DNA from: Octopus vulgaris
Taxonomy: Eukaryota
Direction: 5' to 3'
Length of the DNA stretch: 64,000 bases
NCBI GenBank assembly: GCA_951406725.2
Contig: OX597817.1
Coordinates: 2,852,001 to 2,916,000, forward strand
Part shown: in pieces, positions 488-57,299 of the stretch
How the letters are laid out: the number at the start of each line of letters is the position of its first letter
How positions within the stretch are numbered: the first letter of the stretch is position 1
Translations under genes and position numbers: made by a program
The notes under the pieces: generated by a model
Seen by the model: only the letters and a program-made list of their open reading frames with translations
Databases searched by the model: none
Told to the model about the DNA's origin: nothing

Positions 488-702
488 TGGTTTCAAATTT
501 TGGCACAAGGCCAGCACGTTCGGGAAAGGGAGATAATCGATTACATCGACTCAAGTGCTCGACTGGTACTTATTTTATTGACCCCGAAAAGATGAAAGGC
601 AAAGTCAACCACGGCAGAATTTGAACTCAGAACGTGAAGACGGATGTAATGCCGCTAGGCATTTTACCTGGTATGCCAACGGTTCTACTAGCCCGCCGCC
701 TT
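488..702 (-). mobile_element. tRNA-derived SINE, family A (tail type 2, ...GGCCTTGTGCCAAAATTTGAAACC)
   Basis: Reverse complement matches the copies at 1156 and 44774: AAGGCGGCG.GCT.G.AGAA.CGTT head, GAGTTCAAATTC B-box-like motif, central GACTTTGCCTTTCATC..TTCGGGGTC.ATAAA.TAAGTACC block. Confidence 0.85.
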
Positions 703-1155: not shown

Positions 1156-1368
1156 AAGGCAACGAGCTGGCAGAAACGTTAGCACGCCGGGCGAAATACT
1201 TAGCGATATTTCGTCTGTCTTTACGTTCTGAGTTCAAATACCGCCGAGGTCGACTATGCCTTTTGTCCTTTCGGGGTCGATAAATTAACTACCAGTTGCG
1301 TACTGGGGTCGATCTAATCGACTGCCGTCTCCTCCAAAATTTCGGGCCTTGTACCTAGAGTAGAAAAG
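1156..1368 (+). mobile_element. tRNA-derived SINE, family A, with 18-bp target-site duplication
   Basis: Head AAGGCAACGAGCTGGCAGAAACGTTAGCACGCCGGGCG, B-box-like GAGTTCAAATACC. Flanked by AATATTCTTAGGTCAGTG (1138-1155) and AATATTCATAGGTCAGTG (1369-1386). Confidence 0.9.
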
Positions 1369-3528: not shown

Positions 3529-4086
3529 ATTTTGTCGCTGCTGCTGTTGATAAGCTTGATGTAAGCTCTGGTCCGGTAGACCAATGATCAAAACCGTTCT
3601 AGCAGTAACCATTTCGTTTTCTTTTACTCGGAATTAATGTATCTAGGACTGCATGACCTAATAACGTGTCTTTCCTTTTGTAAAAACAGTAGAGTTGTGA
3701 TGTAAAGACACATTTAACTGATATTTTTAGCAGGCCGACTGGCAACATAATTGGTCAGTGGTTAGTTTGGTTTTCCTTGGGGGTTTGCCCAATCGTTTTA
3801 ATCGAACTCGGAATATAACAGAACTCCATGTATTATCTCCAGACGAATAACTCAGTACTGAGAAGACCAAAATTTAATTCAGTAATTTAGTATTGTACTT
3901 TAGATGTTTAAGTATGTGGTTGGTGCTCTATCTTTACTGTAAGGAAACAACCATCACAATACTCTTAAACCGTATATCAAATCTTTCAAAAATTTTTTTT
4001 AAATACAAGAAAACTGGTTTTGTAAAGAAAAACGGTAGAGAATGAGATATTAAAGATCGAATCTATCCCCCGATATTTATGTTCTT

Positions 4087-4494
4087 ATTTCTTTACTGCC
4101 CACAAGGGGCTATACACAGAGGGGACAAACAAGGACAGACAAACGGATTAAGTCGATTATATCGAACCCAGTGCGTAACTGGTACTTATTTAATCGACCC
4201 CGAAAGGATGAAAGGCAAAGTCAACCTCAGCGGAATTTGAACTCAGAACGTAGCGGCAGACGAAATACCTATTTCTTTACTACCCACAAGGGGCTAAACA
4301 CAGAGGGAACAATCAAGGACAGACGAACGGATTAAGTCGATTACATCGACCCCAGTGCGTAACTGGTACTTAATTTATCGACCCCGAAAGGATGAAAGGA
4401 AAAGTCGACCTCGGCGGAATTTGAACTTGGAACGCAGCGACGGACGAAATACCGCTAAGCATTTCGCCTGGCGCGCTAACGTTTGTGCCAGCTC
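4087..4494 (-). mobile_element. Family A SINE, head-to-tail dimer of the 183-bp body with tail type 1
   Basis: Units 4087-4269 and 4270-4452 are near-identical; a single head lies at 4453-4494. The minus-strand junction reads AAAGAAATA|GGTATTTCGTC. Confidence 0.9.
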
Positions 4495-5446
4495 CTGCGA
4501 CAAATAAAGACAAAGGCTAAGCAAAAGGAATTTGAACCAATATTCTTAAACCGTACATAACTAGATAGCTGAAAAACATTTGATCCGACTTGCCATTCCT
4601 ATTCACTTTCCGCTCTTCGATATTCTGCAAAATCTCCAACAAGCTGTTCCATGTTCGTAGGAGAAAAATTCCACGGCTTTGTGTTCAACTTCAGAAAGGA
4701 TTCTACTAAAAGTTTACCGGTTAAGTCGACTACCCAAGAACAAATAGAAGCCGACGGGGCTTTGCACAGTTTCTACCTACCTAATTTCACTGATAAGGCT
4801 TGGATTGATGCTTTATTATGGTAGAAAATACTTTCTGTAGATACTGGGTAGGGAGTTCAAAATCAAACACAAATTTTTGCCCTACGTGCTGTGTAAGGAT
4901 TCAAGCCCAAACACAAATTCTTTGAAACATGAACCCTTTAAGATAATTTGAATAATTTATGACTTGGTATTCCTTTTAGACTTGCAATAATCGAGTAAAG
5001 TCTGGTTCGATTTCATGTCACAATAAAATTATGAAAACTTTGTTTAGCAACCGATGCGAACTTGTTACCTGATATGCTCATATTGGCATATTTATGAAAT
5101 GGGGCATATTTCTGTAACAGCATAATATTTCTATACCTTTTCTTCTATTTCTAACGTGCTTTCTATTGTTGAATTTCTCGTAGTTAAGATCAAAAGAAAT
5201 ATCTTACATTGCCATATAAAGATTTAGTTTCTTCTCGTGGTTTCAAGAAACTGCAGTAAGTATTCTCCCGGGATTCATAACTAAGAAACAACTTCAAACG
5301 CTACCTGAGTTTCAAACTACAGAAGCTAGCATGTTGTAAACTATATATAATACATTCGATATTGAATACGAATAGAGCAGATATAAAAACAGAAAGCATT
5401 AGAGGTGATAACTTTCATATATACAATGAAATAATGTTCGTTCTTC

Positions 5447-7381: not shown

Positions 7382-8130
7382 AGCAATAATAATTCTCTAA
7401 ATGAGATATAGACAGTGACTGCTCCATAACATAAGGGAAATTAGCCAACTGAATATGGCTAGGGACAGGGCAGGTGGTGGGGGTGTCACTGTTGCATTTA
7501 GCCCCAGGCGAACATCAACGTCACCAGATAGGCCGACGCCATCACGGCGTCCTCTATCTTGCAAAGGGAGATCATTCCCCAAGAAGCGGATGCCACATAC
7601 GGACCTAGGTTTCTAGGTGTATTGCCTATTATCAACGTATGGTAGGCACCGCTTCTCGACGAACAACTCACCGTGCAAGATATATATAAAGATTTTCAAG
7701 TAAATACATTTACTGATTTCGAAAATCTGTTCGACAGCAATAATAATTCTCTAAATGAGATATAGACAGTGACTGCTCCATAACATAAGGGACATTAGCC
7801 AACTGAATATGGCTAGGGACAGGGCAGGGTGGTGGGGGTGTAACTGTTGCATTTAGCCCCAGGCGAACATCAACGTCACCAGATAGGCCGACGCCATCAC
7901 GGCGTCCTCTATCTTGCAAAGGGAGTGATAATAGGCAATACACCTTGAAACCTAGGTCCGTATGTGGCATCCGCTTCTTGGGGAATGATCTCCCTTTGCA
8001 AGATAGAGGACGCCGTGATGGCGTCGGCCTATCTGGTGACGTTGATGTTCGCCTGGGGCTAAATGCAACAGTGACACCCCCACCACCTGCCCTGTCCCTA
8101 GCCATATTCAGTTGGCTAATGTCCCTTATG

Positions 8131-8134
<4 letters not shown>
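7382..8134. repeat. 354-bp unit in tandem plus inverted arrangement inside (TA)n; Penelope pseudo-LTR-like
   Basis: Unit 1 at 7382-7735; partial direct copy at 7736-7925; inverted copy at 7926-8134 (reverse complement of ~7426-7633). (TA)n on both sides. Confidence 0.85.
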
Positions 8135-13410: not shown

Positions 13411-15046
13411 TTGCTATTACTTTCTCTCACTTTCTCTCAGTCAGGGCTATTACTCTCACTACTCTCCTTCACTAAATTACTATTTTCTCTCCTCTCCTTT
13501 CACTTATACTACTCTTCATCCTACTCTTTCTGCTTGGTTTTGGACAAATATATATATATTTATATATTTGTATGTACACATACCAACATTCATACATACG
13601 TACATACGTACATACATACATACATACATACATACATACATACATACATACGTACATACATACATACATACATACATACATACATACATCTCATACATAC
13701 AGAGACCAAGAAGTAAAAGAAGGTGAGTAGATGGAAATGAGAGAGGAGAAGGAGAGAAAGAGTGATAGAGAAAGAATTGTGTGATTGCAAAACAGCGTCA
13801 GTTTTTCTAAAGTCTTCTTTTGTTCAGGATTTCTCATATTTCTGTGCCAGTCTTTATTAGATTTATTAGAAACATTTAATTTACGCGGTCCTATCTATGC
13901 AGCCCTTTCTGATTCCAGATTCTGTAAGGAACACTTTTTGCGACTGGTGATATTACTGTTTTATTTAAGGCAAAATTCATTGAAACATAGATTTTGCGTG
14001 TTTTCACAAGAACTTGCTGTCAGAAAATTGATTTCATCTTCGAGAATGATGTTAACAGCTGTTGTTCAAACTCAGATCAAGCTTGATTGAAGAAATTTAC
14101 GAACAAACGGAGTCCTGCCGTGACCATCTCATTTTCCAGATATTGTGCATTGATGTTAATATCAACTGATGTGTCATCCTATTCTTAAGCTGCCTTGGAA
14201 TAATTGGAATACTTACTTCTAGCACAGGAACAGGGTTTCAATTTTCGGGAGTAAATGATAGCCAATAGTGTCGGTGTCACTATTTGATTGGTATTATATA
14301 TTGTCGATCCCAGAGGGACAAAATGCAATATTGATCTCAGCAGGACATGAAATCAAAACCTAAAATGCTGAAACAAATACTGCAAGGTATTTTTTCGATA
14401 TTCTATCGATTTTGCTCATCCATTTCTTTATTGCTCGGGGATGATACAAAGGAAATTTATCTAGTATTTCAAGATGGTCAAGTAACCACGGAGACTCTCA
14501 CTTCTTTCGTGATTTACTACATGTTCCCTGTATTACTTCGGCATTATATTTGCATTACGTTTGCATCAGCTTTGATTAACACGGCGTCCCAAATATTCTG
14601 ATCTTTTCGAAATTTCATACAAAATACTTGTCCTCTACTAATGCTTTTCCACTAAGTTGTCTTTTGTGCTGTACAATATAATGGGTTACATTGACTCGTT
14701 GTAGAAACATAGAGAACCAGTGGGGAAATGCGGTATCTGTATGGCCGATATAACAGTTCAAACCCATTATATTTACAACTTTCAAATTTGATATTATAAA
14801 TTTGAAAATTAATTTTTTTTCTTCGTTTACCGATCTGAGAACGATGTAAAACAAAGGGTACTTTAGTGGGGATTCGAATTCACAATATAAATACCCACAA
14901 CAAATATTGCAGCATTTATTCTGATTCTGCTAAACCACGACTCTAATTTGTAAATTAAATTCGCAGAAGATTATTTGGTTTGGTGCATGTTAATTTTGCA
15001 TGTTTTATGAAATAACATTAATGCAAGATAATATTGTAATATAATT

Positions 15047-15293
15047 AAGGCGGCGAATGGCAGAAACGTTAGCACGCCGGGCGAAATGCGTAGCCGTATT
15101 TCGTCTGCCGTTACGTTCTGAGTTCACATTCCATCGAGGTCGACTTTACCTGTCATCCTTTCAGGGTCGATAAATAAAGTAGCAGTTACGCACTGGGGAC
15201 GATATAATTGACTTAATCCGTTTGTCTGTCCTTGTTTGTCCTCTCTGTGTTTAGCCCCTTGTGGGTAGTAAAGAAATAGGTATTTCGTCTGTC
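15047..15293 (+). mobile_element. Family A SINE with tail type 1, followed by a short re-start of the body
   Basis: Full head and body, tail ...TTTAGCCCCTTGTGGGTAGTAAAGAAATA, then GGTATTTCGTCTGTC. Confidence 0.9.
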
Positions 15294-16244
15294 TGTTATT
15301 GAAAATTTATTGTTGGAGTCTGTTCGTAAAGTAAGTTTCTCTTGATCGTTGTATCGTTATATCTCTTGTTGTGCCTATTGTTGGACTTATTGTTTAAAAA
15401 TTGCATTATAGTTTTCTTTCGAAAGCTATCTATAGTTTTCCCCTGTGAGTGAAAACATTAATTGCCGGCAAGATGCCGAAAAAGTGTGTTTTAGTCGTGT
15501 GAAGATTCATCGACCGAGCGGTATACGAGGAAGATTGAAAGTTTAATTTTTGATGAAGTTTCTGATGTTCCGGAAAGTGAATTCCCTGCATTACCAAAAA
15601 GTTACGGATACGAAAAGAAATATACGGATACCAAAGTTACGGAAAAGTTACGGATACCAAAAGAACCCTAAAACAATGGGGTGGCCTAATACTTTTGGCC
15701 AAGGCTATAACACTCTTCTCTGTACGTATTTACAATGAATAAACTATTGCTGTATCGATCTATGATTTGAACTACTTCATTATGGTTATATCTGTTATTG
15801 AATACCTATTGTTTCTCTGTCGTCACCGTCTCTGTTATATCATTAATTACTTTTTGCAAATTTTCGTACTAAGGAGTGTATAATTGATATTTCACACTTA
15901 TGTAGATATTGAGTTTATTAAGACACCTATAGATAATTATTGATGAATTTATTGATTTCATAGTACGAAGAGACACTTGAATTCTTATCGATATTAATCT
16001 GAAGATTATAGTTATTTACAGACAATTTTATTTCTTTATCTATATTTTCTTATTTGAATAAAAGAGTAAGTATGTCATCCGTGTATCTGGTAGGAATTAT
16101 TTGTCAGTAATTTAATTTCGTTTGATTTTTCAAGGTGTCTATGCAGAACATGCAAATTCAGATCCAAGCTGTGAACTTGTCGCCACTGTGATATTGATGA
16201 AAAAAAAAAAGCAGAAAGAGATAAACACCGTTCTGTGTCATACC

Positions 16245-16442: not shown

Positions 16443-16899
16443 GTGATACTGAGGATATCAAATATACATGCATATAATCACATAAATTATATAATACAAA
16501 ATGTGGACAAATGTACATGTTTGCATTATGAATATTATATGTAGGACGGTGGATTGAGAGAATCGTGGGTTCTGGTAAAAATGCTTCTTCTGGCGCGTTA
16601 CATCCAGACTTCAAATCCCGCTGGTATCAACTCTTCCTCTCATTCGTTCGGTGTCGATAAAAGAAATTACCATAATCAAATATGAGAGAAATTATAATAT
16701 CTGTTACATAATTGGCAGAGTCTTTCAATGTCTCTATATGTCCGTTCTCTGATGTTAGAAAATTCTGTTCTTGCAGGATTTATCTCCCTTGATTACTGTA
16801 TACTTCAGTGTTACCTAGCATAGGACGATTAACGTTGGATACGTACATTCGTTAGTGTTGATAATATCAAGTAATATTACATTCGTAGTTGATTGATAG

Positions 16900-18757: not shown

Positions 18758-20395
18758 CATTGGTCAGCAAAAAACATTATGAAATGGTGTCGAGACACTA
18801 AACCTCTCTTTTAGCTAATTTGAGGGCGCTGAATCTGAAAATGACCTTACTTTTTCTTGCTTAGCTACCGTTTTTGCTGTCCAGAAATGCTTCATTTGAT
18901 ATTGTATATTTGATATTGACCGATAGCAATATTTCTCAAAATAAAATCATAGAAACTTCTCAATTCGGATTTAAACCAACAAATATTGGTCTGCTCATTG
19001 AGGAATACTATTTTTGCAATAACAACCAGACCCTAAGTCTTTAAAAATAACACGATTGAATATACCAAGACCAACAAGTATTTTCATTAAATCATTAGAT
19101 AAACTAACAGCAGAAATAAAACCTTCGTGAACATAAGACCTATGGTAAAATTTTCCTCTTTCTTGATTGTCAGTCATGTTCGATATTATCTAAGTCCCTT
19201 TTGATACCCCAGCAGTAGTCAACCATCATTCGTTTGTCCCACCATCCCTGGTAGCGCTCTTCCATTGTTTTGATAAACTGATGGAATCGTTCTCGTTGCT
19301 CATCACTCATATCGTCGCAATTATATGGAAATTTACCTAGATAGCTATGTAAAAAATTAACCTTAATGCTCATAGTAGCGCCTATGTTCTGTAAACTTTT
19401 CAACAGCTTTTCCACAAACTCATTGTAGTTTTCGACCCAGCGATTGCCTAAGAAGTTTTTCACCATGTCAACAAACGATGTCAAAGCGGGTAATTCCACG
19501 TCATTCATTGAATTAACAAATTCATCATCCTTAATGAGTTTCCTGATATCAGGACCGTCAAACACTCCTGCTTTGAGTTTTTTGGTGCTAAGTCCTGGAA
19601 ACGATTTACATATATACTCAAAACGTTTACTTTCTTTGTCGAGTAATTTTACAAAATATTTCATTAATCCCAATTTGTTATGCAAAGGAGGGAAGATGAT
19701 TTTCTCTCTCGGAACTAGCGCTACACTAATAATGGTCTTTCCTCTAACCTTCAACTCTCGGGATGGCCAATCTATCCTTTTCCAGTGCTCCTCTCAAGCA
19801 GGAAATTTACCATTTTCAAATCGACCACCCATTTATGTTTGGTGTAGTCAATCTGTTCCATAACCTGTTTGATGGCATCATTTATTTTTTTCAATGTTGT
19901 TGAATGACCTATCGGTATTGGTGCATACATGTTGGTATTATGGATTAAACACATTTCAAACTACGCTTTGAACTATCGATGAACAATTTCCATTCATCAG
20001 GATCGTATTTGTGGGCACTTATTTGTGTTTACTAAAGTATATTACTAATAAAGTTTATCAGTTAATTTGAATTTTGGCAATAAATTGGAAAATTCGGTAC
20101 TTCTATTTTAAAAGGTTTGACTCAAAAATACTTTTTTCTTATGAAAATAGTTCATTTCAGGTGGCTGACATAAATTGCTCAGCCTACCTAAAAATTCATG
20201 GGTTTCTATTACATTTTTAAGCTAAATTTTGCGATCAGTCAATATCGTAAATTGATCTTTTTACCAAAAATGAGCTATTTCAGTACACGGTAGCTAACAA
20301 TGAAAAACTAAGATCATTTTCGGAATCAGCACCATCACATTAGCTAAAAGAAAACGTATTTGACCAGTGTTATGATATTATATTGTTGACCAGTG
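18758..20395 (-). mobile_element. Chapaev3-like (CMC) DNA transposon, internally deleted
   Basis: Imperfect TIRs of ~120 bp (CATTGGTCAGCAA.../...TTGTTGACCAGTG; 18810-18880 mirrors 20281-20350). TTA on both flanks (18755-18757, 20396-20398). CA(C/T)..GTG ends with a 3-bp TWA TSD fit Chapaev3. Confidence 0.8.
19170..20010 (-). pseudogene. Chapaev-type DDE transposase, C-terminal half, frameshifted
   Basis: Motifs WKLFIDSSKRSLK, PIPIGHS, PPLHNKLGLMKYFVK, GVFDGPDIRKL, MSIKVNFLHS, SDEQRERFHQ, RYQGWW..M..DYCW across ORFs 19772..19954 and 19170..19754. Confidence 0.85.
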
Positions 20396-22568: not shown

Positions 22569-24170
22569 TGTAAACTCCCACACTTTCCGATGTAAGAGTA
22601 CTCTACGCATATATCTTTATTCTATGAGTGTACAGGATATGAACATCCCCTTGCATTCTCGTGTGCTGACGTGGAATGTGATCATCAGAAAGACGTACCC
22701 ATGAGTAAGGACTTCCCAAAAGTATCAACAGGTTTTTGCTGGGCCCCGATTAGTTGAAGCAGATTAGAACACAATCTCTCATTCTGCCAAACGGAGATAG
22801 ATTTGAGCTCAGAGCACTGATGATGACACAATGCCGCAAGTCAATTGTATCCAAGGTTCCAATGATTGTGCTGTTACGACACATTTACATACGCACACAC
22901 ACACGCGTATTCATATACACACATACACATACATACACAGATACATACATACAGGCAGAGAGCTGACATTTGCGATAATTCAAAGCAATCAACTATCATT
23001 TTGTTTTTCTGCAACATATCGAATGTTTATAAATATATCGATTTTGTGTATAGTAAAGGATACATTACTATATTGACTACAGAATGGAGGTCAATGACAG
23101 AAACAGTACATCATACGACAAAATAATTTGTAATATTTGATTACATGTCCTTAAGTTCGAAGTTCAGATCCCGCCCAGGTCGAATTCACTTTTCATCTAT
23201 CTGCGGTTGGTAAAATAATTATATTTCTAATATTGGGAGCCGATATAATCGAATGTACACGTGAAAGTGGTGTCCCAGGGGTCCAAAGTTCAATGCCTGC
23301 AACCAGTAACAGAATATCGTTTTATCATCTGTACTTTTGTTTCATTTTATAATTATTTAACGCTCACATACCAATGGTTCCTCCGTCGATGTCGACTATG
23401 CTCGATTCAATAGTTCGATCATTTGAGCTACTCTCTCATTCTATTAGTATAATAGTGGCTTTATATTCGCCGGGTGATGGTACCCTTATGAAGAATTCTG
23501 AGGCAAAATCAATGTGAAAAAGCTGACGTTTTCTGTTAACGGTTTCGAGGCTTAAGATAAACATTCCGCTAAAACATGCATCGAGAACACACCTCTCTCA
23601 TTTGTTCGACACAATCCGACATTTTGTGTGTGTGTGTGTGTGTACGTTCATGCATACACATACATATACACGCTGAACAACAAAAATAAACTTTTAAAAA
23701 ATAGGTATCGATTTTGACTTGGTTATATGGAAAAGCGTAAGAATTCTTTATGTATTTCTGAGTGTTGATCAAAGACCTGTGCTTCAATACAAGAATGAAG
23801 ATTTCAGAGAGATAGTCAACGGTTTCGTACGCTCGTATTTGTATTGAGTGAGTTTCATTTTGTCATCATAGCAATTTATTTCGAAACTTTGCTCGTCAAT
23901 CTGATGACTAGAGGAATTTCAGTTCGAGGGGGTCTGTAATACATAGATTATGGTTTTGAAAGGCTTGAACTGTTCAAACACGAAAATAGGCGATACATAC
24001 AGAATGAAACATATACAAACATGCACAGCATATACATATACATATATATATGTATATATATAAAAAGGACTGAAACCTCTGGAGCTGGTACCTCACAACA
24101 GTCACGGCTATTGTATATATATATACACACACACATATATAGATACACGCCTACCTACTTACTTATGCAC

Positions 24171-24209
<39 letters not shown>

Positions 24210-24211
24210 AA

Positions 24212-26303
24212 TACAACGAGGACGAATCGTTAGCCAGAAATAGGAGTAACTACACCCCCTCGAAAGGTAAGAATAAAACACTTGATGATTTCTGTGACCA
24301 CATATCAAATTACCCATATCAACATATGCACAAACAAAAACACAAACCAAACTTCAGCAAAAAAGAATGGGCTGAGTTGAACAAATTAAAACTAGATAAA
24401 ACAATAACAATCAAAGAGGCCGATAAAGGGAGTACAGTTGTCTTAATGGATACGACATTTTACATAACTTTGGTACTTTCTATGCTGGAAGACACAACAT
24501 ACTATGAAAAGGCACAAAACTACAGTCAACAAAAAATAATGAGGGAACTAAAATCCATATTAAACCCATACAAAGCAGGGCTCACCGACAAAGAATATGA
24601 TTATATGACCAATTTCACAAGTAAAACTAGCCAATTCTACGGTATACCTAAGATCCACAAAAGTGAAAAAATAAGCAACGCATGCAAGATAGCTACAGAC
24701 AAAATAATTAAAGTCCCTAATCCTAATGACCTCAAATTGAGACCCATAATAGCAGGTCCCGCATGCGAAACCCACCGCCTCAGTAACTTTTTAGACACCC
24801 TGTTAAAACCACTCCTCAAACATGTCAAAAGCTATATAAGGGACGACTTAGATATGCTCAATCACCTACCGAATACTATAAACAAAAACACCATACTGGT
24901 ATCCTTCGATGTAGTCAACCTCTACTCCAATATCCCCCACAACCTAGGACTAGAGGCAATCCAATTCTGGCTAGAGAATCACGCCAACGAACTACCACAC
25001 CGCATCAAAAAAGAATTTGTGATAGAAGGGGTTAAATTCATCCTGGAAAATAACTTCTTCGCCTTCAATGACAACTTCTACCGACAAAAATCGGGGACTG
25101 CGATGGGTACACGAATGGCCCCCTCCTTTGCCAACCTAGTCATAGGATACCTAGAGATCAGTCTGTATCGTAAGGTTCTAGAAAGATATGGCAGCCCTTT
25201 CTCCATCTACATAGAAAACAACTGGAAGAGATATCTAGATGACTGTTTCATCCTTTGGCATAAAAATATAGAAAAACTCATAGAATTCCAGAAAATTTTA
25301 AACGGACTGGACGTAAACATCCAATTCACGATGGAATATAGCCAACAACAACTCCCCTTCCTCGATATCCTCATTAAGAAAGCTAATAATATAATAGAAA
25401 CAGACATATACTATAAGCCTACAGACTCTAAGCAATATCTTCCATTCAATTCATGCCACCCCAGACACACCAGGATGAATATCCCCTTCAATCTAGCAAA
25501 AAGGATATGCACTATAGTCTCTAACGCAAACACCAGAGACACACGACTACAAGAACTAAAAGATACCCTAATCACCAGGAACTATCCACCTTCACTTATT
25601 GACAAGTGCATTCAACGTGCCCTTCAACTTAACATCAAGGAACTGAGACATCCCAAATCAAAGAAAAACTTACAACCAAAAGCCTTACCATACATCTCCA
25701 CACACAACCCTCTCAATAACGAAGCCTTCGACACCATCCTCCACAACATACCCCTCCTAAAAAAAGACCACAGAATGAACACAATCCTCCAAACACACAC
25801 GATCATAAAAAGCAAAAGACAGCCTAGATCCATGAAAAGTCTCCTTACACAAGCCCGAATTCACTCTTCAACACAGAAGCCGACAGTAAAAAAATGTGGA
25901 AGACCCAATTGCGGGATATGCGACTATCTAATCGAGGGTTCTGAGTTCTCCTTCAAACAGGGACAACGGTTTACAGTGAAAAGCAACTTCACATGTGCTT
26001 CGGAGAACCTAATATACTCACTAACCTGCTCCGGGTGTCAAGAGCAGTACATAGGCCAAACAAAAAATGGTTTGCGTAAACGAATGGCCCTGCACAGATC
26101 CCAGATAAAAATTCCCCAAAACAGAAAAATAGTTTTTAGCCAACACATAGATACTTGCGCCAACAAAAAAACACCAAACTTCAGAATTTTTCCCCCTCTA
26201 CCAATTTAGGGACGATACAACCTCGAGACAACGAATAAGTAAAGAAAATCTCTTTATTACAAAATACAAGCCACTTCTTAACGGGTCTACGACAAACAAT
26301 TAA
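24212..26303 (+). CDS. Penelope-like reverse transcriptase + GIY-YIG endonuclease (N-terminally truncated, one terminal frameshift)
   Basis: ADKG motif, FYGIPKIHK, LRPII, SFDVVNLY, GTAMG, RYLDD, LPFLD, YKPT, CGRPNCGIC linker, LIY..C..C..QYIGQT..R..H. The frame is open upstream of the track ATG (24326) back to 24212. Removing one base in TTTTTCCCCC (~26187-26196) continues to ..RISKENLFITKYKPLLN..TAA at 26303. Confidence 0.93.
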
Positions 26304-28485: not shown

Positions 28486-28965
28486 GGATTAGAGACAAAC
28501 ACTTTCCTCTCTGGTCAATCTCTCATCAACTTCAAGTATCACTTGAAAAGGAAAGTGAGAGTAGAGAAGCAAGTTTTGTCTAGCGAATGTTTCAAAAAAA
28601 GAATGGATGAATGTAACAAGGATAGCACGTATGAATGACGAAGCCACCTTGAGCATGATCCTATGAACCCGGAAAAATTTAAAACAGACAGTTACTTGCA
28701 AATAAATGTGTTAACATGTGACATTATTGACCGAGGTTGCCGTGGTCTTTTCCGTAGGCTTTTCTTTCCACGGATAAACCTTATCTGTTTCCTCCTTTAC
28801 ACTTTACATCATGACATTTCTGTGATACACGATCCTTATTGATCGTTTTTTTTTTTCGAAAACCTACCTCCACCTTATTTTCTTTTTTTTTCTCCCCAAA
28901 AAGAAAAGCTCTACTTTGTAATTTGTCCCCTCTGTGTTCAGCCCTGTGTGGCTAATAAAGAAACA
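28486..28965 (+). mobile_element. 5'-truncated 3' end of a Tx1-like (L1 clade) LINE
   Basis: Translates SLINFKYHLKRKVRVEKQVLSSECFKK(fs)RWMNV..MIL*, resembling Tx1 ORF2 C-termini from memory. Pyrimidine-rich 3' UTR ending AATAAAGAAA. Begins directly after (TCTA)n and is followed by TATCTATC. Confidence 0.6.
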
Positions 28966-36189: not shown

Positions 36190-37695
36190 TTGTTCAGTTT
36201 TATTTCAAGATTCTTGCCAATTGAGAAAGAGTCGGCTTCTAACCTAGATCCAAGACTCTTTCATTGGAATTTCATCATTGCTTTATGTATTTGTGCAGAT
36301 TTGTATGTTTTGTTTTATGTGTGTATTCTCATGCACATAGCTGCCTATCAGTCCTGCTCCTAAATGTTTAAATGACGAACTTCTGGAAAGTTTTGCATAT
36401 CCTTATAGTTCCAGTGATGGTTGTTTCAGTCTTCGAATTAGCATTCTCCATTCTAGGTTTGAGAAGCCTAATTTCTCAAGGCTGGTATTTGGGCAGTGTA
36501 TTATATATCCCAGGGCCCGAACGATTACAGGTATAAATCTGAAATTGTAATCTGGATAGAGTAACTGCAGATTTCTCAATAGTTAAGTGTAGGTATTCTC
36601 TTTTTCACTGATCACCAGCTTCATGTTAACATCCGCTGGGGAGCAAATTTCCACAGCTGCGCACAGTTTCTCTTCTCTATCCCAAATCATTATATCAAGT
36701 CTGTTGTGCTTACATGTTATTGAGGTCTTCTCTGGTACATTCCACCAGTACTTCTTTTTATTGAGTGGCAATGGCTTCTACCATACCGTGGGTTTTTATT
36801 TCTTTGTCCTCGGGATTATCCTTCCGACGGATTTCATTATAGAGTGCCCGAGCTACAACATCATGTCTCATCGGTAGATAATACCGTGATGACATTTTCG
36901 GACAACTGCCTATGACGTGGGTGATTTCTTCGGTGTTAACTCCACAAAGTCTGCATTGGTTGTCACATCTTACTGCTTTTCCTGCATCTCTATCCTTTTG
37001 TGCATCAGGTATTTGGTTGATATTTTCTGTTCCTGGATAGCAAACACATACCCTTCAAAGTGGGAGGTAATAAACCGGCTATTGGTCCATGAGAGACTGC
37101 TTTGATGATCAATGTTACTATCATCTCGTAGCTTTCTACTGACATATCCATGCATAGTCTTCTGCTCATATAGGCTCATCCTTTGATCTGATGATACGTT
37201 GCGGTAGAGTCGTGCGACTTTTTTGGGCAGGTATTCTAGGTTATCAGTCAAGGAATGTTGCTTAAGGAGTTGCCATCCAAGTCTTGGGAAGTTATCAGCC
37301 TCGTGTATGCAAACTTGGTCAAGGAATGCACTTCGACATATTTTAGTTAAAAGATATTGCCGAAGCGATATGATACGACATTGAAAGGCATTTTGGATCG
37401 ATGTTAAGCCTCTGCCGCCTTGTTTTCATTATAGGTAGTGGTGGTCTGCATCACTGTTTATGTGGAAATTACCTGTGCTTGTTAATATTTTTCAGGTTTT
37501 CACATCAATAGCTCGGATCTCAGCAAGAGTCCAATCAAGTAGCCCAAATTTTGATATGAGTACTGGCACTGCAAATACATTGTGAGCCACGGGTTTATTT
37601 ATTGCAGAGAGTTCTGAGGTCCCCGTTTTCTTTATTCCGCTGTTATATTCTTTAGTGGTAAGTGTTTTGTTACAGGTGCTATTGTAAGATGTAAG
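36190..37695 (-). mobile_element. R4/Dong-like (RLE) non-LTR retrotransposon, 5'-truncated, decayed
   Basis: Minus strand: post-RT SELSAINK..N.FAVPVL..FGLLDW, GGRGL, MHG, EGYVFAIQEQ, CRLCG...E.ITHVIGSC zinc knuckle, RHD.V, RLE motif RLD..WD..VEICSPAD.N..EKENTY; then a 3' UTR running into (CATA)n. Confidence 0.88.
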
Positions 37696-44028: not shown

Positions 44029-44226
44029 GTTTAAAATTTGGGTACATGGCCAGGAATTTCGGTGACGAGGTAAGTCAATTATGTTGACTCCATTGCTCAC
44101 CTGGTGCTATATTATCAATGTATTTCATCGATGAAAGGCAAAGTCGACCTCGGCAGAATTTGAACTCAGAACGTAAAGACGGACGACATGCTGCTAAGCA
44201 TTTTGCGGGGGCGGTAACGATTCAGC
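44029..44226 (-). mobile_element. Family A SINE (tail type 2) with TSD
   Basis: Central block GATGAAAGGCAAAGTCGACCTCGGCAGAATTTGAACTCAGAACG; flanked by TACAAGAAATA(A/T)ATTG at 44013-44028 and 44227-44242. Confidence 0.85.
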
Positions 44227-44773
44227 TACAAGAAATATATTGAAGTAAATTCAGTCAAATATATATCCGTCCCAAAAACGTTGGTTCTGTGCCGGTAAGA
44301 AAAACAGTTACCCTGTTTGTAACTTGATAAGCATCTAAGTATATTAAAGTAAGCAACAACACCTACAACCAATTACACAACGCAGTTTGTCTTCTTGATT
44401 GTCACCTTTTGACTAATGAGTCAACGATGGTGCTTCTGTGCGGTCATTCGCTTCCTAAAAATAGCAGTTAAGTCTTCCCTAAATACCTCTTTACTAAAAT
44501 AAATGGCGTCATATTAGCTAATTGAGTCCCTTGTGCCTGAAAAAGATGAGGTCGTTAAGGATAAAATGCCTTTCATCATAATACTGCTCTATCAGAGATG
44601 ATCTGAGAAAAAATAGCATACAATCTTAACGTTCTAAAACTGTGTATATGAAACAGTCCCACTACACACACAGATAAACATGATGTTTATTATCCAAAAA
44701 GAATCCTTTGTATTTAGTACAAGTTGCGTTTATGTTTTCATAAATCGATCTCAATACTGGTTTCTTTTGTTAT

Positions 44774-45172
44774 AAAGCGGCGAGCTGGCAGAAACGTTAG
44801 TACGCTGATTGAAATGCTTAGCGGTATTATCGTCTGCCGCTACGTTCTGCGTTCAAATTCCGCCGAGGTCGACTTTGCCTTTCACCCTTTCGGGGTCAAT
44901 AAATTAAGTACCAGTTACGCACTGGGGTCGATGTAATAGACTTAATCCGTTTGTCTGTCCTTGTTTGCCCCCTCTGTGTTTAGCCCCTTGTGGGTAGTAA
45001 CGAAATAGATATTTCGTCCGTCTTTAAGTCCTGAGTTCAAATTCTGTGGAGGACGACTTTGTCTTAATACTCTCAGGGTCAATAAAATAAGTACCATTTG
45101 AACACTGGGATCGATGTAATCGACTTTGCCCCTTCCCTAGAACTGCTGGCCTTAAGCCAAAATTTGAAACCA
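44774..45172 (+). mobile_element. Composite family A SINE: head + tail-1 unit + diverged tail-2 unit
   Basis: First body is near consensus and ends GTGGGTAGTAACGAAATA (~45008). It is immediately followed by GATATTTCGTC and a more diverged body ending GCCAAAATTTGAAACC. Confidence 0.9.
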
Positions 45173-47854
45173 ATATCGGTTTGTTATATAAAACTGAGTT
45201 ATGATTTTACTATTACTTGAACTCAGACTAACATGTTATTAGGACAATTGTTTTGAAGTCTGGACAAAGTTACAAAAGTATTTTGTTGTATGTAATCCCT
45301 TGCGTTCTGATTCTAAATCCTGCCGAGGCTAACGTTGTCTCTCATCTCTTTTAGGGCCAATAAAATGGTATTACCAATCAACTATTCGCTGCGAATTAAT
45401 AGACCTATGAAACATACTATAAACTAATAAAATAAAAGACAAGAAGATTAGAGTTTTCTTCGCCCCATAGATATAATAGATAATGATGACAGTATATATA
45501 TCCCCGTTCGAGACAGAATTGCTACATTAGGTTACAAGTAGAGGATTATGTTAGTTTTCAAAGTTGTACATTATTACTCTTATTTTTGTTGTTTGTTATT
45601 TGCTTCTAATTTGAGCTACTTGCTACTTTAATATTTTAATACCCCATTTTAAAAATAAAAGATAATCCTATTGGATAGCTTAAATTACCATCTAAGAAAA
45701 CAAGCAATCCGAATGCGTATATGCGCATTACAGAGAGCGAAAGAGATACGTTTTCACACACACACACACACCTATGGTGCTATCTAGTGCTCGCTATAAC
45801 GAAATCAATCCGACAACCGGGATTGGCGATGAAAGTTGTTTTAGATTTTTTACAACACCAATCGGTTTCATTTTCGATTGGATTCGGTGATTTATTGCTG
45901 AATGTTTACCTGACTGGATTGCAAGAAAGCGCTTTTATTTATAAACAGCGTAATAATGGTATTACTTTCAACTCTACATACTAATTAATTACAAAAGTTC
46001 TGCAAGTCATGTCACTTTCTTTCTTCTCTTCTTTGAAAGCGATGTTAGACTTTCATCTGTCGGATCAGCTAATCATCGCCTGCTCTTTCCCCTGTGTAAA
46101 ATTAGTTACACTTCCTATCTCCTATCCTGCTACTTTCTTTGATATAATTATGTCAAGGACTGTCTATAATAATCTGCTTTGTTTCTGATTTATACAGTCA
46201 TTATTTGCATTAGTCATTAATTGCTGATGAGGATGCTTAACCCCGCGGCAACTCTGATCAAGCAAATCTGTGATCAAAATTGTTTCAGCTCGATCTTCCC
46301 GTCCCGTCCAGTCCTTTATTTAGAGATACTATAGCTATTGCTACACTAATATGTTCTTTCTGTTTTAATACTATCGGCGTTTAACACTAGTTTCGTTGGC
46401 ATTTTCTTAAATGCAGAATAATCATCAAAAAACTCCCACCTTGGGTCCTAGTCCGTAATATAAATGATCGTGTAATAAACTGTATAATATACAGCATTAA
46501 GCCAAACACACAGTACAGGATAATTTGCACAAATTGCATGGGTTTTCTGCCTTCAAGAAACAGTAACCCAGTCTCATTTAAATAACACTATATTGAATTT
46601 AAAAGGAAGTACGCGTCAGATAATGTAGATTTAATACGCTAATTCTTAAAAGAGACGGAGTGGTCATGTCTGGAGATCTTTTATCATGGTCCTGCGAAAG
46701 TAGTGCTGTCCTGGGTCTAAATAACAACATAGCAGAAAATCCTAACTAACAATTAGTTTAATAAATATCTGTTAATGACTATTAAATAGGATTCTGCTAA
46801 TTATTATTGTAAACAAGTGGGAGTAACATCACGGATAATTGAAATGGTAATGCCGCAGACAAAGAGCTTAAGTGTTTGTGGTTATCAATTCTGTTGCATC
46901 TGTGACTTAGATATCCCAGCCTTAAAGTCCTTGTTTCCTTGGCCCTAAATAAATAACGCATTGATACGTAACGTTGACAAGTGTTTTGTTCAAGAAGCTG
47001 ATAGTCATTTCGTGACTCTCCTGCATAGGGAAAATGCCCATCCTCTATTGAAGGGCGTATTTGTTAAATACATAAATCTACACTAGCCAACGAGGAAAAC
47101 CACTGTATCATGGTTCACCTTGCTACAAGCAGCAGGCAAATTCACACTAAGAACACCTTGTCGTGATAAAAAATAAAAAAGACTGATATAATAAGTGTTG
47201 TAATCCATGATAAACAAGACATCAAGGCGACGGACAGTGATTGAATACTTTTGAAAGTATGTTTACTCAGTCAGCACTAACTTGGGACTATACAACAACA
47301 ACAGCAGAAGCAGCAGCAGCAGTAGCACCAACAGCATCAGTTGCAGCAGCAGTAGCAGCTGTAGAAATCAATGAAGTTGACCTGGTATTTGGACGATCAA
47401 CTGAAGAATGGAAATGTATTGATATAATCAGATACAGCTTTAAAATGTATGACAATGCTTAGCAATTTGAAGCAGGTTGTATTGCATTTCACTTGACACC
47501 ATTATCACTTTTTTCAGACAATGAAGCCTCGCTGACATAGAGGTGCGATAGCAGCAAACCTATTGTTTTGGCAATCAATGTTTTAAGCTAACTAGAAAGT
47601 TACATTAGTTCTAATATATGTTTAATATGAATATCGATCGAAGCGAAAATATTTATCATCATTTGTGGCGTGTTGATATTGATCATATGAGTCAATAACA
47701 GGATGCATATTTTGACGAGATATTATATTGGTAGAAAGTTATCCTTTGCAGCCATTCGGTCACGAAGTTCAACTTTCTCCATAGTTTGAATATTTTCTTC
47801 CAGCCACAATATTTATGACTTTTTTTGACTTTGGCTTTTCTTTTCCTTCTTTTT

Positions 47855-54886: not shown

Positions 54887-56042
54887 TCAATGTTTGTTTT
54901 TATGTTCAGTTATATTAAAAACAATTTTACATTAATCCAATGGGATACGCTATACGAGCTTCTGACGAGATTCAGTTTTCACCCGCCAAAACCACTCACA
55001 AGACTTAAATCGGTTTAGGTTGACAGAAAAAGATACTAGCCCAAGGTTCTGCGCAGTGGAACTGAATCCAAGCTTCTTAACCACACAGCCTCGCCTAGAA
55101 TAAAACGACAATTCGGTTTGATCTTGGTCTGTCCTTTATATATGACGCTTTCCTTATTGATGTATTCATTCTTATTTGAAGATTAAATGATCAATCGCTT
55201 TGCTCGTGTGTGCGACTATGCGTGAGTTTATCACGCTAACTGCTTTAATGTATGGAGTTACAAGTGTGTATAAATTAAATAATCAAATGCATTTCTTTCT
55301 TTCTATCTCTCTCTATGTATGTATGTATGTATGTATGTATGTATGTATGTATGTATGTATGTATGTATGTATGTATGTATGTAGGCATGCATGTATGTAT
55401 GTATATAGGTATGTATGTATAATCTATAATATTATTCTCCGCGTTTCTGCGTTACTACCTGTTTAGTCCGTGTGTTACGCTGTCGTCAAGGGAGGTAATA
55501 ACCCGAATGGTGAATTATATGCAGAGAAAGAATGAAGGGGAAAGGGGAAACTAGGAAGGAGTGAGAAAGGAAGAGGGGGGAGAGGAGACGGTCTCTATTA
55601 TTCTGTGTTTTTGCGTTCAAATCGCAGGCGCAGTCCTGATGTTTCACATAGTGAAACAATATCGTGAAAATTTATAAATCTATTCCTTTAATGATATATC
55701 GAGAGATAATTAAATATAGATATATAAAAGTTTATACTTTTATCTTTTATATGTTCCTGAACATAGGCTGTATTCGGTTTAAATACTTTATCAGTATTAT
55801 GAGAGCAAATGAGGAAAGGAATTTAGATATGATAATTAATTAACTAGTTAGCTGGATAGATAGTCAGGTACGCAGGTGAGTCTACAGATATATCAACAGA
55901 TATGCACGTAGAGAGGTATATTAATAAACATACAAACAGATATGCGGCTGAACTGAACTGAAATGAAAACAGAAATGAAAATAATCTCAATTAGTAAATA
56001 ACTTTGACTGAACTTTGGTGGTGGTTAAACAGCTAACAGTGT

Positions 56043-57010: not shown

Positions 57011-57203
57011 AGATTAAAATTTTGGCACAAGGCCAGCAAGGCCAATAAGGCCAGCAATTTCGACCTCAGTGCTCAACTGGTACTTATTTTATTGACCCCG
57101 GAAAGATGAAAGGCGAAGTCGAGCATGGCGGCATTTGAACTCAGAAGAAATGTTGCTAAGCATTTTTTTCAGGTGCAGTAACGATTCTGCCTGTTGGCCA
57201 CCT
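57011..57203 (-). mobile_element. Family A SINE (tail type 2) with perfect 18-bp TSD
   Basis: TAATGCTCTGAATATATT at 56993-57010 and 57204-57221; family A central block in between. Confidence 0.88.
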
Positions 57204-57299
57204 TAATGCTCTGAATATATTGCTAGTTTATGATTCATGGTGTAACAGATTTCATGAAAATGGTTATATCATGTGCATCGAAGTTTCTTCTGGATGGAC

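Follow-up and report, generated by a model that had tools for sequence, protein, structure and literature searches.

An octopus SINE subfamily that may insert at a fixed site within its own family

SINE copies in the window

The window, by which we mean the whole 64-kb stretch of octopus DNA analyzed here, has a GC content of 36.7%, is rich in microsatellites and carries retroelement remnants. It contains copies of a SINE whose unit of about 215–235 nt consists of a tRNA-like head, a common body and one of three tails. Two motifs of this unit, spotted by eye, resemble the consensus of an A box and a B box. ARAGORN returned no tRNA gene in the window, and an Rfam scan of the whole window at the gathering score gave no match, including to ribozymes. 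SINEBase defines a tRNA-derived SINE as an interspersed element shorter than 1 kb, with at least 100 copies and a head at least 60% identical to a tRNA (PMC3531059); the size, dispersal and abundance of the octopus repeat agree with this definition. SINE-matching contigs number 55,506–240,607 per run in four runs, and the tail-1 copies can be roughly estimated at 55,000–217,000 genome-wide (about 10^5). Exact SINE motifs were found at no locus in metagenome, viral and prokaryote genome contigs.

Four standalone monomers, delimited by copy search and TSD alignment, served as controls. The tail-2 monomer at 57011..57204 (minus strand), the tail-3 monomer at 1156..1368 (plus strand) and the 5'-truncated tail-2 monomer at 44029..44226 (minus strand) are flanked by TPRT-type TSDs that match at 18 of 18, 17 of 18 and 15 of 16 positions, respectively, and all three TSDs begin with AAT, letters that match the tail end. 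The fourth, a tail-2 monomer at 488..702 (minus strand), has a weaker TSD-like repeat. As the earlier note had stated, none of these copies carries the junction described below; each ends in its TSD or TSD-like repeat. An older lone tail-1 fragment, also without the junction, was placed at 28922..28963 (plus strand) by tail search and tail comparison. Heavily decayed further copies of the same family lie at 16544–16665, 23152–23221 and 45303–45366.

A fixed junction behind tail 1

Tail 1 terminates in AAAGAAATA. Of the five tail-1 ends that the window holds, three continue with G(G/A)TATTTCGTC, the sequence at a head/body position about 49 nt into the SINE. These junctions lie at 4270/4269 (minus strand), 15278/15279 and 45007/45008, which bears out the earlier claim that tail 1 is joined to a fixed head base at three loci. 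The other two ends, at 4086 and 28963, adjoin unrelated flank and had been left out of that count. The junction 10-mer occurs with at most one mismatch at 13 of 127,980 positions in the window, and the probability that three of five tail-1 ends fall at a fixed offset by chance is about 1e-11. This value, together with a genome-wide excess over random insertion, rules out a chance origin: the junction is real, far beyond chance.

Each of the three composites has one head only. Their downstream partners differ: the body at 44774 is a decayed one with tail 2, that at 4087 a young one with tail 1, and at 15047 the partner amounts to 16 nt of the 1156-copy type. Each locus is a different combination of an upstream allele set, of which there are two, and a downstream type, which points to repeated formation of the junction. 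With at most two units at each of the three loci, the composites fall short of SINE satellites, which are arrays of more than four similar units.

The composite at 44774

Based on local alignment, a degenerate TSD brackets the whole composite, as proposed earlier: its left copy at 44752..44773 aligns to its right copy at 45171..45192. Between them, all on the plus strand, a lone tRNA-like head with the A-box-like motif occupies 44774..44822 and spans the head hairpin from its 5' arm through its loop. It is followed by the upstream body with the B-box-like motif (44823..44943), tail 1 (44944..45007, 95% identical to tail 1 at 15215–15278), a downstream tail-2-type body that starts at the fixed junction base (45008..45126) and tail 2 (45127..45171, with 87% identity to that of the 488 copy). 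The downstream body has tail-2 letters at columns 67, 69, 71, 72, 93, 130, 136, 150 and 151.

The upstream body differs from its leave-one-out consensus at 5 of 117 positions and the downstream body from the tail-2 consensus at 19 of 116 (p = 0.002), divergence figures that are noisy with consensus sequences built from three or four copies. The inner body is thus younger than the outer one, as had been suggested. The head had likewise been described as diverged, and it does show 6 changes in 45 positions from the tail-1 consensus, against 7 in 181 for the upstream body and tail (p = 0.025). However, it carries tail-1-type letters at alignment columns 25, 43 and 57, found in none of three tail-2 monomers; among the rows listed, the loose-end consensus lines suggest one of these three letters also before tail-2-type bodies. 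On these letters, the head need not belong to the outer element. The decay of the TSD equals or exceeds that seen around old monomers, which would fit an origin together with the old element. Over 30 positions, the downstream body departs at 7 from the loose-end consensus that follows 15294, which argues that it was not the main template.

The composites at 4087 and 15047

The composite at 4087, on the minus strand, consists of two tail-1 units. The first (4270..4494) comprises head, body and tail 1 and differs from the consensus at 7 of 117 positions; the second (4086..4269) is a headless body with tail 1, followed by unrelated flank, and differs at 6 of 117. The tail allele of the second unit is the type commoner in organism E, one of the organisms compared below. 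The two units are equally young and 10% apart, and this difference led us to reject a local tandem duplication. In the composite at 15047, on the plus strand, a unit of head, body and tail 1 (15047..15278) with subfamily alleles unlike those at 44774 and 4494 is followed by a 16-nt junction arm of the 1156-copy type (15279..15294) and then by a different repeat. Local alignment of the flanks revealed no TSD at either composite, and no convincing distant TSD was present within 9 kb of the 15047 composite or 4 kb of the 4494 composite.

The earlier proposal of a younger SINE inside an older one therefore holds at 44774, whereas the units at 4087 are of equal age and the second unit at 15047 is only 16 nt long. 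An age gap at one of three loci and missing TSDs at two of three cut against simple nesting. The missing TSDs, as well as the mixed partners, could be explained if a founding junction had been copied at the DNA level by ectopic gene conversion or unequal exchange, with head and body as homology arms, and SINE-derived tandem arrays are known from the available text of PMC10702118 and PMC11481361. However, such copying would have to have happened at scattered places an estimated tens of thousands of times, the 10% difference between the 4087 units is unlike a local duplication, and the window holds no array longer than two units. We regard such a spread as very unlikely.

Some further features adjoin these composites. 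Just upstream of the 4494 head, at 4495–4540 (minus strand), lie SINE-like scraps with an 11-nt B-box-like stretch and two 8-nt matches. A 21-nt direct repeat of 90% identity (4558–4538 and 3977–3957) distantly surrounds the 4087 composite (E = 0.01); the scraps and the repeat may be due to chance. The segment behind the 15047 arm (15295–15707) belongs to an element of moderate repetition, and its stretch at 15679–15707 resembles a Tc1-type terminal repeat, to which the window contains no partner end.

Junction frequency in genome-wide contigs

To estimate how common the junction is, we compared all contigs of four of 24 public runs (X1 from organism A, X4 from B, X7 from D and X13 from E) over 14950–15399, a stretch picked because one 15-nt depth bin holds the junction arm alone. 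Contigs give no per-locus pairing of upstream and downstream unit ages, and none among the matches listed spans the whole stretch. X1, X4 and X7 share an arm/tail depth ratio of 0.266, and X13 has a ratio of 0.129; just past the arm, the depth falls below 0.001 of the tail bin. Two simulations with our own contig-placement rule were used to convert depth ratios into junction fractions. Without junctions, the simulated arm/tail ratio is at most 0.016. A ratio of 0.266 corresponds to a true fraction of 0.3–0.4 for fully fragmented contigs with a minimum match of 20–25, above 0.5 for unitigs and above 0.7 for a minimum match of 31, while the tail/core depth ratio of 0.70 corresponds to about 0.7 or more. 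Collectively, these values, which derive from summed contig depth and our own aligner model and disagree between the two ratios, suggest that about 0.3–0.7 of tail-1 copies stand at the junction in organisms A, B and D, with a lower share in E. The fraction expected from random insertion is at most 0.0002; such an excess at one position within a repeat is what a target-specific SINE should show.

The junction was seen from both sides in contigs of organisms A, B and D. Among the best 24 of 1,682 loose-end rows, tail-1 sequence precedes the body start in at least 224, 185 and 405 contigs of X1, X4 and X7, respectively; behind the arm, a tail-1-type body follows in at least 229, 189 and 534 and a GTCTTT-type body in at least 246, 195 and 376, all numbers for these runs being lower bounds. 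The same rows give a random A/T-rich flank at the tail end 15278 in at least 538, 419, 575 and 241 contigs of X1, X4, X7 and X13. The joint of 15279 to 15096 occurs in at least 8, 6, 11 and 0 contigs in the same order (best 15 of 233 joints). The downstream bodies thus fall into two or more types with comparable counts, to which 44774 adds a third, decayed tail-2 type; this again points to repeated formation. The flanks behind tail 1 are thus nonrandom genome-wide, with the junction common in three of four organisms and several body types behind it; random flanks were one outcome that the earlier note had named as fatal to its proposal.

In organism E, no contig appears in the four listed joint rows and no loose end among the top six rows; nevertheless, its ratio of 0.129 lies above the simulated baseline, and the junction is likely present. 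The letter at 15266 is C in 11–13% of the depth in organisms A, B and D versus 78% in E; in the window it is T in all three junction-forming tails and C in the non-forming tail at 4086. At 15242, 15247 and 15266 alike, the allele shares of organism E stand well apart from those of organisms A, B and D, as would follow from a lineage-specific subfamily burst. Judged by the letter at 15266, the junction seems tied to a subfamily whose expansion came after the split of organism E.

Other contigs carry private variants. A five-letter variant directly behind the arm has a depth of 765 in X1 and 1,294 in X7, or about 47 and 27 single-copy equivalents, and X7 has two smaller ones (best 12 of 606 rows in each case). 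The join of tail, arm and flank at 15047 recurs in at least two X7 contigs, with 9 and 12 differences, among the matches listed. Such shared variants after the junction indicate that some composites, or arms, were multiplied as a unit from a common source. The proposed comparison of inner and outer divergence is therefore mixed: the units are unequal at 44774 and equal at 4087, and private variants are common to some composites.

These observations bear on a serious rival explanation, though a less probable one, in which a few compound sources (head, body, tail 1, body and a further tail), formed on one or several occasions, were retrotransposed whole, as in dimeric Alu. Monomers would then come from priming that starts at the internal tail 1, and unusual partners from recombination afterwards. 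Compound sources would account for the base-exact junction, the single head without a special step, the equal unit ages at 4087, the private variants common to about 27–47 copies and the identical arm/tail ratio of 0.266 in three organisms. However, several upstream and downstream types would call for several masters with an identical junction, the downstream body at 44774 is 16% decayed and unlike the genome-wide consensus, and TSDs are degenerate at 44774 and absent at 4087 and 15047. A dimeric SINE has a constant second monomer of equal age; in this respect, 44774 and the several downstream types differ, whereas the equal ages at 4087 and the variants shared among contigs agree. The single dimeric master or simple tandem duplication that the earlier note had set against its own proposal fails on the several downstream body types and the 10% difference between the 4087 units.

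A second tandem type, in which tail 1 is followed by a full head, was also observed. Its joints, 15278 or 15275 to 15062, occur in all four runs, including that of organism E, in at least 11, 7, 20 and 8 contigs.

Hairpin, tail end and transcript termination

Folding places the junction where loop and stem meet in an 11–12-bp head hairpin. The tail end mimics the 5' arm of this hairpin (five of six letters) and could pair weakly with the 3' arm: the native head stem has −14.3 kcal/mol versus −3.6 kcal/mol for the 6 bp between tail end and arm. Covariation in the hairpin does not exceed that of shuffles (168 of 500), and the whole unit folds only weakly better than shuffles (z of −2.07 and −1.06). 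The target base at the junction does not match the tail-end letters, unlike the ordinary TSDs that start with AAT, which favors an arm borne by the RNA. Canonical priming at an AAAT microhomology in the 5' stem of the head was rejected, as the loop would remain and the product is absent among the best 15 of 233 joints.

The position at the hairpin border would suit insertion by an endonuclease of a partner LINE that nicks the head by its sequence or as an extruded hairpin, with an RNA that ends at tail 1. In X7, a joint of 15109 to 15057 runs about 16 nt past the site and then into a full second head; this double-head contig (depth 850, about 18 copies, at least one contig in one of four runs among the joints listed) fits a full-length insertion at the site with a 15–18-nt TSD. 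A precedent is the SINEU family with its Tx1-type partner, according to the available text of PMC4494074. In contrast, the many tail-1 ends with random A/T-rich flanks (at least 538, 419, 575 and 241 contigs, as above), a site unlike the AAT-starting TSDs, hairpin covariation no better than shuffles and the lack of a tail-1-ending partner LINE in the 64-kb window all argue against it, and we consider it improbable.

The pairing of tail end and arm would also be compatible with an RNA chimera, for which SINE RNA cut in the head loop would be ligated by an RtcB-like enzyme, or joined by template jumping, to the 3' end of tail-1 RNA and the product inserted in a single step. This would explain why there is one head, of the young type, a lone TSD around the whole and a mixture of partners, and the available text of PMC6789731 offers a precedent in U6/L1 chimeras. 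However, the pairing is much weaker than the native stem, abundant RNA of decayed copies such as the outer body at 44774 would be needed, young TSDs are predicted, and Rfam found no ribozyme or other RNA family in the whole window. This origin seems quite improbable. On the same Rfam result, we rejected a known RNA family (hammerhead or other) at the unit border, where an undescribed ribozyme could still act.

TTTT is absent from tail 1. Counted from the head, the first TTTT comes after 431 nt at 44774, beyond the whole composite, and after 365 nt at 15047, past the junction; the 4494 unit has a private TTTT at 91. Pol III transcripts of a nested copy would consequently run on into the next body. 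The idea that the target supplies a Pol III promoter survives only for 5'-truncated cDNAs, as a full-length copy already carries both boxes.

A proposed model of homology-primed nesting

We give a probability of roughly 40% to the reading that a young tail-1 subfamily repeatedly retro-inserts into existing relatives, probably primed through homology by read-through RNA. Nesting altogether, with the homology-primed and endonuclease-driven variants taken together, is slightly favored. The self-targeting proposed at the outset thus finds partial support: the junction is fixed genome-wide, whereas a younger unit within an older one is found at one of three loci.

In the homology-primed model, Pol III transcripts of nested copies would pass tail 1 into the next body and thereby carry a 3' homology arm. 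The reverse transcriptase of a partner LINE would prime on A-rich sites from the tail end, which yields the ordinary monomers flanked by AAT TSDs, or alternatively where the arm is annealed to a nicked family member. The single head requires a homology-based joining on the 5' side or a join at the RNA level; here, the 5' end of the cDNA might anneal to the head of the target, leaving one head and the old TSD. Each product would again have a full promoter and an arm, and the junction would feed itself; some composites may additionally have been copied whole. Such nesting would account for the base-exact junction with mixed partners and, through the feedback, for its high frequency. The aged downstream body at 44774 with its worn TSD and the donor variants behind the junction would follow from it as well, and the double-head contig of X7 would fit a full-length insertion of this kind. 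In a wider claim, which is possible though doubtful, a non-coding SINE would have gained RNA-guided retrohoming to its own relatives, with the head of the target captured as promoter and each product serving as a further donor with an arm; this feedback would have converted older copies by the tens of thousands within a single octopus lineage.

If nesting is true, the choice of target would be written in the SINE RNA and not in the LINE endonuclease. The octopus would then offer a natural case of retro-insertion directed by homology, open to counts over thousands of loci and to assays in vitro, and its self-targeting would be an uncommon mode of spread. Furthermore, octopus repeat-age profiles and SINE presence/absence markers would be distorted because the same base is hit repeatedly. 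If compound masters are true instead, the composites form an undescribed dimeric SINE group, useful for annotation and ordinary in kind.

Comparison with known systems

By analogy, the octopus element acts like a target-preferring SINE aimed at its own family and is a candidate member of that class. The nearest known case found is crocodilian SINEU, which targets another repeat: in the available text of PMC4494074, 13–90% of SINEU-1/-2/-3 copies sit at a site in Mariner-N4_AMi, a target common to Tx1-Mar. Both elements strongly prefer a site in an abundant repeat, and the tandem SINEU copies that arise through sequential insertion (PMC4494074) are a further likeness. In contrast, the SINEU target is a Mariner transposon with a known partner of the same target, whereas the octopus SINE targets its own family and gives one-head products. 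Similar to the octopus SINE, Alu shows SINE-in-SINE nesting and dimers amplified as a unit; however, the text available for PMC3014933 puts Alu nested in Alu at 2,268 of 1,004,931 copies (0.2%), with A-rich linkers preferred, whereas an estimated 30% or more of the octopus copies are at one base that is not A-rich.

Multimers of the form TSD-(SINE)n-TSD in the clam S. broughtonii (PMC11481361) and sSat arrays in squamates (PMC10702118), as far as the available text of these papers goes, resemble the octopus composites in having one complete head, later units cut at a fixed head position and a single TSD pair. They differ in that their first tail is truncated, a segment of one family is repeated and 3% of copies are tandem or palindromic, whereas in octopus the first tail is whole and the joined partners belong to several subfamilies and differ in age. 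For R2, co-transcribed target sequence is reported to strengthen targeting (cited in the available text of PMC4494074), a role for target-homologous RNA flanks like that proposed here, but R2 codes for a specific endonuclease of its own and is directed at 28S rDNA, whereas the octopus SINE is non-coding. U6/L1 chimeras, which arise through RtcB ligation (PMC6789731, available text), similarly join a complete small-RNA 3' end to a 5'-truncated retroelement in a one-unit insertion, but the L1 truncation varies, whereas the octopus join is base-exact and within one family.

The octopus SINEs OK, OR1 and OR2 (Ohshima and Okada 1994; cited in the available text of PMC4824008, PMC4758252 and PMC3531059) are tRNA-derived like the present element, a likeness drawn from their description and not from consensus sequences. 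The available text of PMC9977147 holds nothing on self-targeting, and the literature searched gives no account of the junction or of a SINE that targets a fixed base of its own family, although subscription papers, Repbase or supplements may have one.

Other repeats in the window

A LINE-like C-terminal fragment lies at about 36400–37425 (minus strand), with no SINE tail match on its 3' side; outside SINE copies, the tails matched nowhere in the 64-kb window, this fragment included. By its motifs it looks R4/Dong-like, and its part at 36973–37425 best matches an Octopus bimaculoides protein at 76% identity (two hits among 106 candidates). A 207-codon frame at 19170–19793 (minus strand) has no Pfam match and is presumably transposon-derived. 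An open 674-codon frame at 24185–26209 (plus strand) matches RVT_1 and, weakly, GIY-YIG, which indicates a Penelope-like element. Finally, an inverted repeat of 209 nt (7426–7634 and 7926–8134) is 99% complementary with a spacing of 291 nt.
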